Sequence record: PQ478073.1
Source of the DNA: a phage
Reading direction: 5' to 3' (one strand)
Length of the DNA: 64,000 nucleotides
Shown here piece after piece: positions 39,003 through 52,846 of the stretch. The notes beneath the pieces are model-generated. The model was not told the origin of the DNA, searched no databases, and was given only the letters and a program-made list of their open reading frames with translations. Position 1 is the first letter of the stretch, and each line of letters starts with the position of its first letter. The translations under genes and the position numbers were made by a program.

Positions 39003-39194
39003 ATGTTGATTTATCAAAGTGATAATATTCGTGTTATGCAGCATCCCTACTTACAAATCTTTGATGTGCAGCAGTATATGGAAGGTGATGACCCAAGAAC
39101 CTATGGTCGTAAGTATGATTACTTCACTGTAAAGCAGTGTAAAAATATTAACGAAGTACGACAATTAGTTCAAGAACTTCAAAACAAAGGTTGA
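39003..39194 (+). CDS. small hypothetical protein
   Basis: start moved to ATG 39003, SD AAGGA. Confidence 0.45.
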   Translation: MLIYQSDNIRVMQHPYLQIFDVQQYMEGDDPRTYGRKYDYFTVKQCKNINEVRQLVQELQNKG

Positions 39195-39220
39195 CTTCGG
39201 TCAGCCTTTTTTGTTATAAT
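39188..39220 (+). promoter_or_regulatory. bifunctional cassette: terminator hairpin (AGGTTGAC-TTCG-GTCAGCCT, T-run) overlapping promoter (TTGACT-N18-TATAAT)
   Basis: UUCG tetraloop hairpin + T6; -35 TTGACT lies inside the stem. Confidence 0.65.
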
Positions 39221-39248
39221 TCTCTTAATAAATTAGAGGATTTTAATT

Positions 39249-39689
39249 ATGTATGTATATCGTTTTGAACTTAAATTTAGTTACATTGAACCTAACTTAG
39301 ATCCTGCACGAACTGTAGGTCCGTTTGCACGGTATTCAACTAGATACAGTACTAAAAATGGATTTGACCGTTTGCTTATGACTACACCTTCTCAATTCCA
39401 ACCTGAACCAACTGAGGATGGGATCTATTCAATCAAAAGTGGATGGGTATTTGGCTGTCAAAGTTTGAAAGATTTGTTCAGATTCTTCACTATGGACTTG
39501 GGTAAATTGCATCGTGCTGGGTTTGCTATATCTGTATATGAAGTTCCAGACCACCATGTAGACATTGGTCGTAATCAGGTTCAGTACTATTGCGGTAGTG
39601 CTAAATTAGTTCGTATCATGTCAGTTAAGGAAGCAAAGGATGAGTTCCGACAAAGTAAAAGAGAAACACATGAGGTAATATATGGATAA
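39249..39689 (+). CDS. hypothetical protein
   Basis: ORF 146 aa; SD AGAGGA. Confidence 0.55.
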   Translation: MYVYRFELKFSYIEPNLDPARTVGPFARYSTRYSTKNGFDRLLMTTPSQFQPEPTEDGIYSIKSGWVFGCQSLKDLFRFFTMDLGKLHRAGFAISVYEVPDHHVDIGRNQVQYYCGSAKLVRIMSVKEAKDEFRQSKRETHEVIYG

Positions 39690-40026
39690 AACTCAAATAG
39701 AATTAAAGAAATTTGTTTCATTCTATTTTCCTGATGACCCACGTAATTCACAAAAAGATATTGAATATTATAATATCCTATCTAAACAGTTAATGAGAAA
39801 GTTTCAACAGTGTTTAACTATATTCAATACAGATGGAAGACGTAGATACCGAATCGTTTCAATGAATGATGAAAACGCAAATTTCTTTGATTACGATGTA
39901 GTTTTTAGAGCATATAATGATGATCGTATAAAATTAAATTATGATCAAATTATACTTGACCTGAATGTTATATGTGTTATAATCACTCACGTAGCCGAAC
40001 TTAATGGTTTTAAAGAATGGTATTGA
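39682..40026 (+). CDS. hypothetical protein
   Basis: ORF 114 aa; SD GAGGT. Confidence 0.5.
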   Translation: MDKTQIELKKFVSFYFPDDPRNSQKDIEYYNILSKQLMRKFQQCLTIFNTDGRRRYRIVSMNDENANFFDYDVVFRAYNDDRIKLNYDQIILDLNVICVIITHVAELNGFKEWY

Positions 40027-40040
40027 ATAGAGGATAACAT

Positions 40041-40307
40041 ATGAAGCTTAAATTACAATATAATGGATTTACTTTACGTAATGATACTGAATTTATTAAT
40101 CGTTCTCCTGGTGCTGAACTGTTTTTACGAGAGATGAACATTCCTTTCATCATTACTACAGTGGGCGACCGTGAAGTTCTACAATATGCAGAGCATCCGA
40201 TTATTGATGTTCCTTGGTACTCTGAGCATATGTACATGGATATGGCACGTCGCTACAACTGTAAGTTCGTAGTTGAAGGTGATAAAATTACAGTCGAATT
40301 TAAATAA
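40041..40307 (+). CDS. hypothetical protein
   Basis: ORF 88 aa; SD AGAGGA. Confidence 0.55.
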   Translation: MKLKLQYNGFTLRNDTEFINRSPGAELFLREMNIPFIITTVGDREVLQYAEHPIIDVPWYSEHMYMDMARRYNCKFVVEGDKITVEFK

Positions 40308-40319
40308 GGTAAATTAAAA

Positions 40320-40613
40320 ATGATCAGTACTTCAGTTAATGAAAGCATCGTCGCTGACGTAGAAATGGTTAAAGAATGTGCAGATGAAACTCTTCGTGAT
40401 ATGTACATTAATGATTTAATTACTGAATACGGTAGTCGTGGTGTACACGAATTTATTCGTTTAAGTGGAGAGTTGATGAAAAATCGAATTCGTATGAAGC
40501 TTAACGTACATCCAAAAGCATGGGCATTTACATTAAAATACGCAGAAGATATTGTGAATTTGCGTCGAACTGAAGTATATGAACGTTTGCACAATGGTAT
40601 GTTAGATAAATGA
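40320..40613 (+). CDS. hypothetical protein
   Basis: ORF 97 aa; SD AAGGTAA. Confidence 0.55.
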   Translation: MISTSVNESIVADVEMVKECADETLRDMYINDLITEYGSRGVHEFIRLSGELMKNRIRMKLNVHPKAWAFTLKYAEDIVNLRRTEVYERLHNGMLDK

Positions 40614-40642
40614 TTGTAAAAAAGGAATTCTTAAATGAATTC
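40612..40642 (+). terminator. intrinsic terminator
   Basis: stem AAGGAATTC/GAATTCCTT, loop TTAAAT, then TTTGTTT. Confidence 0.65.
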
Positions 40643-40665
40643 CTTTTTGTTTATAAGGTATAGTA

Positions 40666-50620: not shown

Positions 50621-50671
50621 TTGATGTAGTATGTGCTACACCAAAGTATTTGGATATTTTAGATATAAACA

Positions 50672-50700
50672 TTGACACCTGTTCTATCTTTCTGTATTAT
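50672..50700 (+). promoter_or_regulatory. promoter TTGACA-N17-TATTAT
   Basis: hexamers upstream of 50727 gene. Confidence 0.5.
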
Positions 50701-50726
50701 GTACATCACCAAATGAGGAATACAAC

Positions 50727-51086
50727 ATGGCATCTTTAAGTGAAATCGCAGAATACAACCCACTAACAATCTCAACAATTCAACGTACAAAAACTTTTTA
50801 TTTCCGTCCTGCTGATGGATGGAAACGTGGAATGAATGGTGACTATCGAGTACTGGAAGATTCACTAATCGAGCGTATCAACTCTGAACTACAGAAGTAT
50901 GAAGGTGTTAAAGTTGTGCGTTCAACTTCTCGTTATTTTGAGTACTACATTGAGTCTTCAACTGTAAATGAAAACTCATCATTATCGGTGGACAACACTG
51001 ATATTCTTCGTAATGCAGTTGGTATGTTATGCAACATTGCAGAAGAAATGGGATTAACTATTAGTACTATGAGTGAGTTAGAATAA
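50727..51086 (+). CDS. hypothetical protein
   Basis: ORF 119 aa; SD TGAGGAA. Confidence 0.55.
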   Translation: MASLSEIAEYNPLTISTIQRTKTFYFRPADGWKRGMNGDYRVLEDSLIERINSELQKYEGVKVVRSTSRYFEYYIESSTVNENSSLSVDNTDILRNAVGMLCNIAEEMGLTISTMSELE

Positions 51087-51092
51087 CATAAA

Positions 51093-51125
51093 GGGTTGAC
51101 TTCGGTCAGCCCTTTTTGCTATAAT
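51093..51125 (+). promoter_or_regulatory. bifunctional terminator/promoter cassette (GGGTTGAC-TTCG-GTCAGCCC-T5-GC-TATAAT)
   Basis: canonical copy; identical 5'UTR ATCATTTCATCAACTCAAGAGG as 52814 copy. Confidence 0.7.
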
Positions 51126-51151
51126 CATTTCATCAACTCAAGAGGCAACAC

Positions 51152-51385
51152 ATGAAACTATCTTTTATACGATTGGCTGAATTCTTTGGTACTGATGTAA
51201 TTACTCTACAACAAATCGCAGATAATACATCATTAACTACACAAGAAGTACTTGACTTAGATGTAATTCAGTGCGATAATACTTCCATCGATTACAAAGA
51301 AGGTCTTGTCGAAAAAGATAAGATTCAAGCTAAAATTAATGGTGCTGGACGGGTTCAGTACTGGAAAGGAGTTTTAAGTAAATGA
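51152..51385 (+). CDS. hypothetical protein
   Basis: ORF 77 aa; SD AAGAGG. Confidence 0.55.
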   Translation: MKLSFIRLAEFFGTDVITLQQIADNTSLTTQEVLDLDVIQCDNTSIDYKEGLVEKDKIQAKINGAGRVQYWKGVLSK

Positions 51386-52806
51386 AAATTTATATTGATA
51401 AATTTGGAACGACTTATGAATATTATGATTATACACATTATAATTCATATATACAAAAAAATCATAACCAAATGTCACCTTATTTGCATTATGAAGATTT
51501 AATGGAACTATTCTCTAAAAATGTAAATTCTATTAAATTTATTGGTTTTAAAGATCCAACATGGAAAAGTTCACATACGCATGTGTATTTTGAATATGAT
51601 AATATGGTATATGAACATTCAATATCAAATATCAAAACAAAATTCGCTGATCATAGATATAAACCAGGTAGACTATGTAGAACCTTGGAACAAATTATAA
51701 ATGAGTCCATTTATATATTTAAAAAATATGATAAATTTAATTTTCATAGCATTGCATCATTTAATGGAGCACGAACTATAATCAATTATACAATTGAAGG
51801 ACGTGAAAGAATATTTTCTATATCATTCAATTCATTAATAAAAGATTTTAAAGGGGGAAGCCCATGTTATTCATATGAAGAAGTAGAAAATATATCTATA
51901 AAAAAATTAAATGAACATAATTTGAGATTTATCTCAATTAGTAAATTTAATGGTGTGTTTAGTTGTATTGAATATGAACAACCAACTCAGAAAGGAAAAA
52001 AATATGTTGATTTTAATATATTAATCTATAATGAATGGAAAGGTAATCTACCGAATATAACTAATGAAGAGGTGAATAATCGAATTTCAGAAAAAATGAA
52101 AAAACTAAATATCAATGAATATGAAATTGTAGAATATAACAGTACTAGGAGCATGGTTGAATATACAGTTGATGATATTTCATATACAACTAGTTACGAT
52201 AAGATTATGCATCCAACTTGGAAAGGTAATCCAAGATATACAAAAGAAAGAATAATAAAATTGTCGAAAAAATATTGCAAGGGTAAAAAATTTCAATTTA
52301 ATAAAATAATTGGTAATGTTAAAGGAATTAATACTATCATTGAATTAGAACTTGAAAATGGTATGTTTATATATCCAAAATTTATACAATTAAAAGGAGG
52401 TTCTGACTTTAATACATCCACTGATGGTAAGATTTTAACAGAAATAATTTATCCTTTGTTCGACAATTATATCACACAAAAACGTTTTGAAAATTGTAGA
52501 AATCCTGAAACTGGATACTTGTTGCCATATGATTTGTATGTTCCAGAATTTAATTTATTATTAGAAAAAGATGGAGTGCAACATTACAATCCAACAGCAT
52601 ATTTTAATAAAACATATGAATCATATTTGAAATTGAGAGAGAGAGATGAATTTAAAAACAAATATGCCATATCAAATGGTTATAATTTCATGCGAATAGC
52701 AGATTATGAAGATCATGAAAAAATATTGAAATCTTTCCTTAAACTCATTGAAGAGAATCCAGGAAAGCAAATTGTGCAGATCTATGGTGAAGTACAAATT
52801 ATCTAA
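51382..52806 (+). CDS. repeat-module protein with C-terminal DUF559/Vsr-like (PD-(D/E)xK) endonuclease-like domain; possible homing endonuclease
   Basis: 474 aa; repeated ~80-aa modules with F-N-G ... I-x-Y motif; C-term LPYDLYVPEFNLLLEKDGVQHY ... RERDEFKNKYAISNGYNFMRI. Confidence 0.5.
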   Translation: MKIYIDKFGTTYEYYDYTHYNSYIQKNHNQMSPYLHYEDLMELFSKNVNSIKFIGFKDPTWKSSHTHVYFEYDNMVYEHSISNIKTKFADHRYKPGRLCRTLEQIINESIYIFKKYDKFNFHSIASFNGARTIINYTIEGRERIFSISFNSLIKDFKGGSPCYSYEEVENISIKKLNEHNLRFISISKFNGVFSCIEYEQPTQKGKKYVDFNILIYNEWKGNLPNITNEEVNNRISEKMKKLNINEYEIVEYNSTRSMVEYTVDDISYTTSYDKIMHPTWKGNPRYTKERIIKLSKKYCKGKKFQFNKIIGNVKGINTIIELELENGMFIYPKFIQLKGGSDFNTSTDGKILTEIIYPLFDNYITQKRFENCRNPETGYLLPYDLYVPEFNLLLEKDGVQHYNPTAYFNKTYESYLKLRERDEFKNKYAISNGYNFMRIADYEDHEKILKSFLKLIEENPGKQIVQIYGEVQII

Positions 52807-52813
52807 AACAAAA

Positions 52814-52846
52814 GGGTTGACTTCGGTCGGCCCTTTTTGCTATAAT
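52814..52846 (+). promoter_or_regulatory. bifunctional terminator/promoter cassette (GGGTTGAC-TTCG-GTCGGCCC-T5-GC-TATAAT)
   Basis: stem with two G-U pairs; same promoter + 5'UTR as 51093. Confidence 0.65.

Follow-up and report, generated by a model that had tools for sequence, protein, structure and literature searches.

Probable composite regulatory cassettes in the presumed early region

We found that an Asteriusvirus jumbo phage likely carries, among its presumed early genes, composite regulatory cassettes of the PeSL (promoter-early stem-loop) type. The window examined, 64,000 nt of record PQ478073.1, belongs to a 121Q/PBECO4-like jumbo coliphage, and the stretch holding the cassettes is its small-gene, presumed early region. 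Judging from sequence, each cassette is a signal of about 60 bases between early gene blocks that probably stops transcription arriving from upstream and restarts it.

The whole window was searched with the pattern GGGTTGACTTCGGTCAGCCC, allowing up to three mismatches, with 100 shuffles as a control. Exactly eight sites were found, all on the + strand, at 39188, 42431, 42614, 44233, 45316, 49811, 51093 and 52814, the same eight that an earlier sequence-only reading had listed, and the shuffles gave no match (0 expected by chance). All eight fall within 14 kb of small hypothetical genes, with none in the remaining 50 kb of the window. The core is GGGTTGAC-TTCG-GTCAGCCC followed by a T-run. As that reading had described, the stem has 8 bp including a G-U pair, here a T-G wobble at stem position 4 in a stem of eight pairs in every copy, and most loops are UUCG (six of eight, with one UACG and one UAAG). 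The hexamer TTGACT is made up of the final five bases of the 5′ arm and the first loop base. Every copy is oriented as the genes are, with a stop codon 1–12 nt before its start, and in the cassettes with a −10 an ATG preceded by a GAGG-like Shine-Dalgarno (SD) sequence follows 22–30 nt past it. At the Rfam gathering score the cassettes matched no family, the sole matches in the window being seven tRNAs at 14.2–18.8 kb.

The first cassette (39188–39220) has its hairpin at 39188–39207 (AGGTTGAC-TTCG-GTCAGCCT), a −35 TTGACT at 39191–39196, a T-run with TGT and a −10 TATAAT at 39215–39220; transcription is predicted to start at about 39227, ahead of an ATG at 39249 and a unit of about 8 genes. The second (42431–42463; hairpin 42431–42450, loop TAAG; −35 42434–42439; −10 TATCAT 42458–42463, without TGn) precedes a 37-aa ORF starting at 42493. 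The third (42614–42645; hairpin 42614–42633; −35 42617–42622; 17-bp spacer; −10 TATACT 42640–42645) stands before the gene for a 517-aa virion structural protein, and its −10 is overlapped by the T4-late-like TATAAATA. The fourth (44233–44252) consists of the hairpin and a 7-T run only. Since it lacks a credible −10, with just TAAATA at that position, it is best read from its sequence as probably a terminator only, and TTGAC is kept at this site in all relatives. The fifth (45316–45348; hairpin 45316–45335; −35 45319–45324; TGT; −10 TATGAT 45343–45348) is followed by a protein kinase gene (ATG 45377) and then about 12 genes.

Cassette six (49811–49843; hairpin 49811–49830, loop TACG; −35 49814–49819; TGC; −10 TATAAT 49838–49843) has a predicted start at 49850 and the leader CATTTCATCGAAAC in front of denV (ATG 49872; Pyr_excise match, E=6e-15). 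Cassette seven (51093–51125; hairpin 51093–51112, an exact consensus; −35 51096–51101; TGC; −10 TATAAT 51120–51125) has a predicted start at 51132 and the leader CATTTCATCAACTCAAGAGG, and leads into a 77-aa ORF (ATG 51152) and a 474-aa ORF that has no Pfam match and that the record of the relative ELP-22 labels a homing endonuclease. Cassette eight (52814–52846; hairpin 52814–52833, 3′ arm GTCGGCCC with two G-U pairs; −35 52817–52822; TGC; −10 TATAAT 52841–52846), with a predicted start at 52853, precedes an AAA-type ATPase gene (ATG 52875) and then about 9 genes. The genes downstream of these three cassettes are those named in the earlier reading. Its claim of an identical 5′ UTR in all three was correct for 51093 and 52814 but not for 49811, which has ATCATTTCATC in common with them and differs beyond that. 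It had also taken each cassette to insulate a single gene; instead, the units following cassettes one to eight hold about 8, 1, 1, 3, 13, 3–4, 2 and 10 genes.

The decayed copy that had been suspected near 50393 is a half cassette (50393–50412, + strand; AGGATTGACTTCGGTCACAC) with a 4-bp stem left and no T-run; its 5′ arm, loop and the start of its 3′ arm are kept (AGGATTGACTTCGGTCAC) and the sequence diverges after that. A related terminator at 31080–31099 on the + strand (GGGTTGGC-TTAT-GCCAACCT) follows a phage sigma-factor gene; the phage encodes this sigma factor of its own near the cassettes. The 31080 hairpin is orthologous to the GGGTTGAC-TTCG-GTCA(G/A)CCC hairpin of phages Ec-M-J and WPEC3. 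Compared with these orthologues an A-T pair has become G-C on both sides of its stem and TTGAC is gone, and the sequence downstream has no −10 at the right distance.

Terminator features

The core hairpins have energies of −11 to −13.6 kcal/mol, or −12 to −19 kcal/mol with the A/U flanks, and a T-run lies directly 3′ of the hairpin in all copies, giving the GC-rich hairpin and U-rich tract of an intrinsic terminator. An independent annotation, the G17 record, has ARNold terminators at all eight sites, the first cassette included, and the remaining terminators of the window have stems unrelated to those of the cassettes. The U-run has only 3–7 U before it is interrupted (UUUUUGCUAUAAU), the sequence then running on as GCUAUAAU, so termination may be partial.

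The covariation analysis of stem arms that the earlier reading had proposed was run on 31 distinct hairpins from nine genomes. Paired cells made up 97.1% of the total, three pairs were changed on both sides, and the covariation score was reached by none of 500 shuffles, with slid controls far lower.

A 20-bp near-palindrome over a −35 has the geometry of a classic operator, early transcription needs to be shut off, and a phage sigma factor is encoded nearby. It could be argued on these grounds that the repeat is a DNA operator, at which a dimeric phage or host regulator bound to the −35 switches early promoters off, with the RNA hairpin being secondary. We regard this as very improbable. As DNA the repeat is imperfect: the constant T-G and the variable positions form G-U wobbles on the + strand and C-A mismatches on the − strand, where the same hairpins reach only −5 to −7.5 kcal/mol, about 5 kcal/mol weaker. 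All of the variation preserves RNA pairing rather than DNA symmetry, the loops are of the RNA-stabilising UNCG and GNRA types (among the matches listed), a T-run always follows the hairpin, and no candidate binding protein was identified. An additional protein-binding role may exist besides the RNA hairpin.

Promoter features and constraint on the stem

Seven of the eight copies match 10–11 of the 12 sigma70 consensus positions and have an A-tract upstream; 44233 fails, this being a score of sequence match only. In these seven the −10 hexamer lies 17–18 bp past TTGACT, as the earlier reading had it for every copy. The hexamer is TATAAT at 18 bp in 39188, 49811, 51093 and 52814, TATGAT at 18 bp in 45316, TATCAT at 18 bp in 42431 and TATACT at 17 bp in 42614, and five of the seven have a TGn extended −10. 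The 18-bp spacer of most copies is one above the optimal length.

These hexamers might still be incidental in AT-rich DNA, with ordinary intrinsic terminators having been copied around and no initiation taking place. All eight sites are convincing terminators, promoter-like matches over the region as a whole are no commoner than in shuffles (97 found, 103 expected), and 44233 retains TTGAC without a −10. We nevertheless consider this explanation highly unlikely, as the −10 keeps its fixed 17–18 bp distance not only in seven of the eight copies here but also in 39 of the 47 distinct copies that relatives carry. In IMG/VR, among the matches listed, a −10 at 16–19 bp is present in 126 of 171 distinct hairpins of the cassette type (74%) and in 84 of the 100 with the asymmetric arm GTCAGCC, where random positions give a background of 3.4% and TTGAC sites elsewhere one of 14%. 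A start signature is seen as well, the base 7 nt past the −10 being A in 94 of 128 copies and the one before it a pyrimidine in 99 of 128. Stems unrelated to these also have TTGACA at the same distance, and PeSL promoters are active in phages RB49 and phi1 (PMC2839356).

Conservation within the stem argues against a terminator-only reading too. TTGAC is invariant in 71 copies from nine related genomes, which are orthologues and paralogues rather than independent samples, whereas its pairing partners are changed in 16 of the 71 (C to T in one, A to G in six, G to A in nine). All of these changes are A/G or C/T transitions that keep a G-U or Watson-Crick pair. None of the 71 copies has C in place of T4, a substitution that would stabilise the stem at the cost of the −35. 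At 31080, the only orthologous site that has no −10 downstream, TTGAC has been lost along with the A-T to G-C change in the stem. Because the 5′ arm of the putative terminator carries the −35, the stem would be under double constraint, though 44233 keeps TTGAC without a −10 and the invariance may therefore owe something to recent shared ancestry or to exchange among copies rather than to selection for a −35. The earlier reading had expected co-mutation of the arms to preserve both pairing and the −35; both are preserved, but with the 5′ arm frozen and only the 3′ arm moving, through G-U pairs. Its dual interpretation, a terminator with the −35 in its 5′ arm, appears sound given the strand-specific G-U pairs, the frozen TTGAC, the −10 distance and the pyrimidine-A start, and needs revision as to unit size, copy 44233 and co-mutation.

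We propose that as RNA the cassette would pair into an 8-bp stem, lengthened by A-U pairs, capped by a UNCG-type loop and trailed by a U-run, and terminate the upstream unit, while as DNA the same bases would act as a strong early promoter for host sigma70 RNA polymerase. The −35 would be TTGAC from the 5′ arm together with the base that opens the loop, and the A-tract would behave like an UP element; the T-run and TGn would provide the 17–18 bp spacer and extended −10, and TATAAT the −10. Transcription would start about 7 nt past the −10 at a C-A step, giving a leader of about 20 nt with GAGG before the ATG. Owing to the T-G wobble at position 4, the stem could retain TTG, and both hairpin and −35 would be functional in a single direction.

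Comparison with known early cassettes

From their sequence the cassettes appear to belong to the PeSL class already described in T4-like phages (PMC2839356, PMC4122927), which makes them modestly new; the earlier reading had missed this kinship. They share with it an intergenic position, a sigma70-like promoter sequence, a stable stem-loop, clustering, indel joints and overall architecture. The closest likeness, with an identical order of parts and a nearly identical sequence, is to the PeSL cassettes of Vibrio phages nt-1 and KVP40 (Comeau, Arbiol, Krisch 2014, PMC4122927), which have A3-4, GGG, TTG.. in the 5′ arm, a short loop, CCC, a T-run and TAWWAT, and a G in the 3′ arm facing the first T, that is, the same T-G wobble. 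Many of those copies have a CATCAAC or CATCGAAAC leader followed by SD and ATG, and they too are clustered among small variable genes at indel or replacement joints. One example from the published nt-1 segment reads AAAAGGGTTGC-TTCG-GCAGCCCTTTTTTGTTATTCT, and the KVP40 copy AAAAGGGTTGACTGCGGTCAGCCCTTTCGCGTATTAT; the nt-1 intergenic regions at 50.5–56.8 kb and the KVP40 copy have an A-tract, GGGTTG(A)C, loop, G(T)CAGCCC, T-run and TATTAT. The cassettes described here differ in lying in a 350–370 kb Asteriusvirus genome outside the Straboviridae, in having a full TTGACT and mostly TATAAT with TGn, nearer the E. coli consensus than TTGYVH/TAWWAT, in a stem longer by one pair, and in numbering only 8–10 copies within a single stretch of about 14 kb.

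The PeSLs of RB49 and phi1 likewise combine a sigma70-like early promoter with a terminator stem-loop between stop codon and SD/ATG, with AT-rich DNA upstream (Arbiol et al. 2010, PMC2839356). In these phages lacZ fusions were used to measure how active the cassettes are as promoters and terminators, and mini-circle activity was measured too; they fall into five subclasses, some with the stem-loop overlapping the −35, G-T pairs were noted in their stems, and recombination between copies deletes or swaps ORFans (PMC2839356). Their stem-loops are polyG/polyC and are mostly placed over the −10 or in the spacer separating it from the −35, whereas those described here occupy one fixed position, their 5′ arm containing the −35. 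T4 early "uber" promoters (UP/−35/TGn/−10), served by the host's unmodified sigma70 polymerase immediately upon infection, also combine A-rich upstream DNA, a near-consensus −35 and TGn with the −10 (Hinton 2010, PMC2988021), but they generally lie outside any terminator stem, and in the T4/PST PeSL the stem-loop is just upstream of the promoter. Lambdoid morons (Hendrix et al. 2000, via PMC2839356) are similar in being self-contained transcription units with accessory genes that vary among relatives; as summarized in that citing paper, however, their signals are not repeated conserved elements, and no role in exchange is attributed to them, while here one repeated cassette would terminate one unit, act as promoter for the unit after it and serve as a recombination site.

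Occurrence in other phages

Jumbo phages of E. coli, Klebsiella and Yersinia, as well as Aeromonas phage 65, contain matches of 34–47 nt at 91–100% identity. Cronobacter CR8 of the Vequintavirinae has one of 33 nt (91% identity), and Vibrio phage KVP40 a longer one (81% identity). BLAST gave 5–9 places per Asteriusvirus genome, no more than the 6–10 copies counted in the syntenic loci. The hairpin is also on at least 120 stretches of viral metagenome contigs, with loops that are mostly UUCG (43) and GAAA (18) among the matches listed. A scan anchored only on CCCTTTTTGYTATAAT returned further stems with TTGAC(A) at the −35 position, sometimes within the arm, sometimes in the loop and sometimes where the two meet. 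It is possible, though we hold this only tentatively, that the hairpin-embedded −35 cassette is a portable module that recombines between unrelated large phages with the same hosts rather than a T4-like peculiarity, the U-G wobble being the device that would reconcile the −35 with the stem and make both signals one-directional. Alternatively, the same data allow repeated convergent evolution of an obvious design.

Gene-module exchange and possible recombination

By comparison of related genomes, the cassettes are breakpoints of gene-module exchange between related phages, a point that the sequence-only reading had missed. Cassette zones cover 4.5% of the region and contain eight of the 25 unique homology breakpoints between relatives (p about 1e-5). 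Breakpoint enrichment is expected of any intergenic DNA. Phage ph0011 has three deletion joints, each of which is two window cassettes fused into one hybrid. At one of these a 2.4-kb segment (50410–52813) is missing and one intact hybrid cassette stands in its place, and the half cassette at 50393 is the left junction of that segment. The module between 51093 and 52814 also varies among relatives.

Several of the cassette-adjacent indels contain genes annotated as HNH or homing endonucleases in the relatives' records, and these could produce breakpoints without cassette-to-cassette recombination. Their presence next to several cassettes, their differences between relatives and the clustering of breakpoints would also fit repeats whose main role is as termini or target sites of mobile DNA (homing-endonuclease cassettes or MITE-like elements) and which look regulatory only as a by-product. 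We think this is a very remote prospect, as the genes beside most cassettes are ordinary small early ones and include no endonuclease, and all copies share the orientation of the genes, each placed precisely in the gap from stop codon to SD/ATG. Target-site duplications are absent, as are terminal inverted repeats past the hairpin, and the three ph0011 joints are simple cassette-to-cassette hybrids, as homologous recombination predicts.

About 45–60 bp are nearly identical between copies, so the PeSL-type cassettes may act as substrates for homologous recombination, by which the gene modules between them would be deleted, inserted or swapped among related phages.

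Cassette Copies and Their Setting

The window matches Escherichia phage BAU.Micro_ELP-22 at 98.7% identity, and the group it comes from, Asteriusvirus (the 121Q/PBECO4/G17 group), consists of RaK2-like jumbo myoviruses of ~350–370 kb. Its 39–53 kb stretch lies downstream of the phage sigma-factor gene and holds small hypothetical genes along with a T7-0.7-like protein kinase and denV. The same layout in the related phage CBB was proposed by its authors to be an early region rich in RpoD-like promoters with a UP-like element; a stem-loop was not reported in that paper.

A search with the 20-mer GGGTTGACTTCGGTCAGCCC, allowing up to three mismatches, found eight sites in the window, all on the + strand, and none in 100 dinucleotide-preserving shuffles of it. 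These are exactly the eight terminator/promoter cassettes that the sequence-only reading had located (hairpin starts 39188, 42431, 42614, 44233, 45316, 49811, 51093 and 52814), and the repeat is real. Every copy sits just 3′ of a stop codon, with an A-run before it and 3–7 T after it, and has a stem of eight pairs, the fourth a constant T-G wobble, closed by a UUCG loop (6/8), UACG (1/8) or UAAG (1/8). TTGACT is made of five stem bases and the first loop base. The predicted −10 element 17–18 bp after it was found in seven of the eight copies: TATAAT at 39188, 49811, 51093 and 52814, TATGAT at 45316 and TATCAT at 42431, all with an 18 bp spacer, and TATACT at 42614 with a 17 bp spacer. TGn is also present in five of these seven. 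The prediction failed for 44233, which has only TAAATA at this position and cannot credibly be read as a sigma70 promoter.

The copy near 50393 is indeed decayed, keeping AGGATTGACTTCGGTCAC and then diverging, with four pairs left and the T-run gone. An identical 5′ leader had been proposed for three cassettes; it holds through AAGAGG for 51093 and 52814, but 49811 shares ATCATTTCATC only. The genes behind 49811, 51093 and 52814 are, as had been read, denV (Pyr_excise), a 77-aa ORF and an AAA ATPase. The idea that each cassette insulates a single gene had to be dropped, as the units between cassettes hold ~8, 1, 1, 3, 13, 3–4, 2 and 10 genes.

Window terminators were taken from a custom scan, since a standard scan in which the T-run is absorbed into the stem missed 6/8 copies, and the copy number per Asteriusvirus genome was bounded by the BLAST places per record. 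Terminator-like hairpins elsewhere in the window have stems unrelated to that of the cassette, so the repetition is specific to the 39–53 kb region. All eight hairpins are annotated as ARNold terminators in the G17 record, which has no promoter annotation. With Rfam gathering thresholds applied across the window, tRNAs were the only matches and the cassettes gave none; the seven tRNA genes are clustered amid small ORFs, upstream of the cassettes (14177–18825, + strand), and the matching place in phage slurp01 is annotated with tRNA-Gly, Ser, Arg, Met, Asn and Thr.

Other promoter-like sites accompany the cassettes. Three stand-alone, near-perfect sigma70 promoters with no terminator lie in intergenic DNA of the early region (37418–37445, 48045–48072 and 50672–50700); two have TTGACAAAC...AGTACTGTATAAT in common (12/12 matches, 16-bp spacer) and the third is TTGACA-17-TATTAT preceded by TG. 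The −10 TATACT of cassette 42614 (42640–42652) overlaps TATAAATA, the phage T4 late-promoter consensus, and relatives have the following gene annotated as a virion structural protein, so this cassette may serve late transcription in addition to early transcription or in its place.

Hairpin Structure and the Predicted Shared −35 Element

The core hairpins have energies of −11 to −13.6 kcal/mol (−12 to −19 with the A/U flanks), compared to only −5 to −7.5 kcal/mol on the reverse strand, where the wobbles turn into C-A mismatches. The nine Asteriusvirus genomes compared gave 31 distinct hairpins, in which pairing holds for 97.1% of cells; three pairs are altered on both sides, with G-C/A-U changes at the outer pair and A-U/G-C changes inside. 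The observed covariation score was reached in 0/500 shuffles, and it collapses when the register is slid. The inverted repeat could instead be a DNA operator, but we downgraded this explanation because the symmetry is of the RNA type, with G-U pairs on one strand only. An RNA hairpin is also consistent with metagenomic copies, in which UUCG and GNRA are the preferred loops.

Two hairpins of the window have centres that are flipped between relatives (10853–10873 and 31080–31099, compared to loci L132 and L004): TACCCAGTACTTGACTGGGTA in the window corresponds to TACCCAGTCAAGTACTGGGTA in slurp01, and the loop TTAT in the window to ATAA in PBECO4. Template-switch (quasi-palindrome) mutation of terminator hairpins has this signature.

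Co-mutation of the two arms, it had been noted, would need to preserve RNA pairing as well as the −35 sequence. Pairing is preserved together with the −35, but the TTGAC arm is frozen and only its partner bases move. TTGAC is invariant in 71/71 full copies, and its partners show one C-to-T, six A-to-G and nine G-to-A changes, with pairing kept every time. A T to C change in the fourth pair, which would improve the stem and ruin the −35, occurs in none of the 71. The terminator at 31080, which follows the sigma-factor gene and has no −10 downstream, is GGTTGGC...GCCAACC in most relatives and GGGTTGAC...GTCAGCCC in two; here the stem is altered on both sides and TTGAC is lost.

Scanning IMG/VR with the pattern GGTTGACnnnnGTCRRCCYTTT gave at least 120 stretches. 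Among the matches listed, a −10-like hexamer lies 16–19 bp after TTGAC in 126/171 distinct hits, and in 84/100 of those listed for the asymmetric arm, against a background rate of 14% for the remaining TTGAC sites of these loci and 3.4% for random positions. In 94/128 copies an A stands seven nt after the −10, with a pyrimidine just before in 99/128, matching the usual start-site signature. A second scan anchored on CCCTTTTTGYTATAAT alone found different stems with TTGACA still at the −35 position: in some it is part of the arm, in others it spans the junction of arm and loop (GGGGGTTGA-cat-TCAATCCCC) or lies entirely within the loop (GGGCAGGGT-aTTGACAa-ACCCTGCCC), so the layout probably arose more than once.

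At 46 places in other jumbo phages, a sigma70-like promoter, often with the same hairpin cassette, is followed by a conserved ~50-nt element that begins ~7 nt after the −10, in place of SD/ATG (IMG/VR loci L014, L017, L031, L064, L065, L085, L091, L092, L108, L112, L117, L128 and L129; contigs mostly 355–378 kb). Its short stem shows compensatory changes (GGC-AGAUAA-GCC, UCCA-GCGAAA-UGGA, CCG-GCGAAA-CGG) and is followed by ACUA-ACCC-AYA-GGGU-GC and a conserved tail; in some cases the element occurs as convergent pairs. It has no match in Rfam and appears to be a small RNA family, promoter-proximal and so far undescribed. Both the element and the motif TAACCCnnnGGGTG, found after cassettes of other jumbo phages, are missing from the window.

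Relation to Promoter-Early Stem-Loops

Promoter-early stem-loops (PeSLs) were described in phages RB49 and phi1 as sigma70-like early promoters joined to terminator stem-loops and divided into five subclasses, among them one kind lying over the −35; promoter and terminator activity were measured and recombination-generated mini-circles were detected (Arbiol et al. 2010, PMC2839356). They were later extended to T4/PST and nt-1/KVP40, with an nt-1 consensus of A3-4 G3-loop-C3 T3-4 and TTGYVH-N17-TAWWAT (Comeau et al. 2014, PMC4122927). We made the comparison on the DNA itself, using the published nt-1 segment and one KVP40 copy. These read AAAAGGGTTGC-TTCG-GCAGCCCTTTT...TATTCT and AAAAGGGTTGACTGCGGTCAGCCCTTT...TATTAT, and they resemble the window cassettes, with an identical T-G wobble and often the CATCAAC/CATCGAAAC leader in common. 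BLAST of one cassette also found near-identical copies in Klebsiella K64-1-like phages, Aeromonas phage 65, Cronobacter CR8, Erwinia and Xanthomonas jumbo phages, and Yersinia fHe-Yen9-03, where the −35 and −10 are annotated.

The window cassettes have all the defining PeSL features that can be checked in sequence, which places them in this known class as opposed to a new kind, and the reading of a −35 embedded in a terminator hairpin agrees with all of this evidence. A full-text literature search found the cassette sequence (TTGACTTCGGTCA, GGTTGACTTCGG) printed in no paper, and a phrase search for terminator-promoter cassettes in phages returned the PeSL papers only. The RaK2 and fEgEco12 papers mention neither promoters nor terminators, the G17 paper gives an ARNold terminator prediction and no promoters, and the cassette is described in none of the three; our search found no paper bringing the PeSL idea to RaK2-like jumbo phages. 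Our analysis adds the frozen 5′ arm against a mobile 3′ arm, the one-directional hairpin, the wide occurrence of the design in viral metagenomes and the putative cassette-bounded module exchange in Asteriusvirus.

One further site, directly 3′ of the kinase stop (46015–46043), has TTGACA, a 6-bp hairpin CAGAAC-TGAT-GTTCTG within the spacer and TATTCT; it resembles the PeSL subclass with a stem-loop between −35 and −10 but lacks a T-run.

Probable Module Exchange at the Cassettes

Breakpoints were mapped using BLAST of 36–56 kb against the syntenic loci of eight relatives. Eight of 25 unique homology breakpoints fall within −25 to +75 of a hairpin start, a zone covering 4.5% of the region (binomial p ~1e-5), though indels are mainly tolerated in intergenic DNA regardless. 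Relative ph0011 has one hybrid cassette for each of the window pairs 42431+42614, 44233+45316 and 50393+52814, and in all three the flanks change parent within the cassette; the last identifies the half copy 50393 as the left joint of a 2.4-kb segment missing from ph0011. Gene content between 51093 and 52814 varies among the window, G17, 121Q, Ec-M-J and WPEC3. Several exchanged modules carry HNH or homing endonuclease genes according to the relatives' records, and these may drive some of the exchange events.

A perfect palindromic hairpin with two EcoRI sites, GGAATTC-TTAAAT-GAATTCC (40624–40643), has adjoining A-runs and T-runs on each strand and is annotated as a terminator in G17; it is possibly a bidirectional terminator within the first cassette unit. 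Homology to Ec-M-J, WPEC3 and ph0011 ends less than ~350 bp from it (40305, 40778–40891).

Outside the cassette region, RCC1-like ('regulator of chromosome condensation') paralogues form an array (56500–63257, minus strand) with a terminator of its own, (T)GCCAGTAC-loop-GTACTGGC(A), repeated at 63257, 62003, 60791 and 58396, with a variant at 56521. The first three share an almost identical leader, gtattaaatatagtataatgaataaggaggga, and the N-terminus MLPFGRM behind it; at 58396 the leader is diverged, and 56521 has none. These repeats were probably carried by tandem gene duplication.

The cassettes do not open a new biological principle. If confirmed, they would be a clean natural case in which RNA structure and protein recognition constrain one sequence simultaneously, useful for the design of compact insulator parts, and would take the PeSL concept beyond Straboviridae. 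They would also provide an early regulatory map, with unit starts and stops, for the RaK2-like jumbo phages including Asteriusvirus, on which published papers contain little or no promoter analysis. Furthermore, with the same 45–60 bp acting as terminator, promoter and crossover site, expression-ready gene modules could be exchanged whole, which would give a reason for the strong mosaicism of this part of the Asteriusvirus genome.
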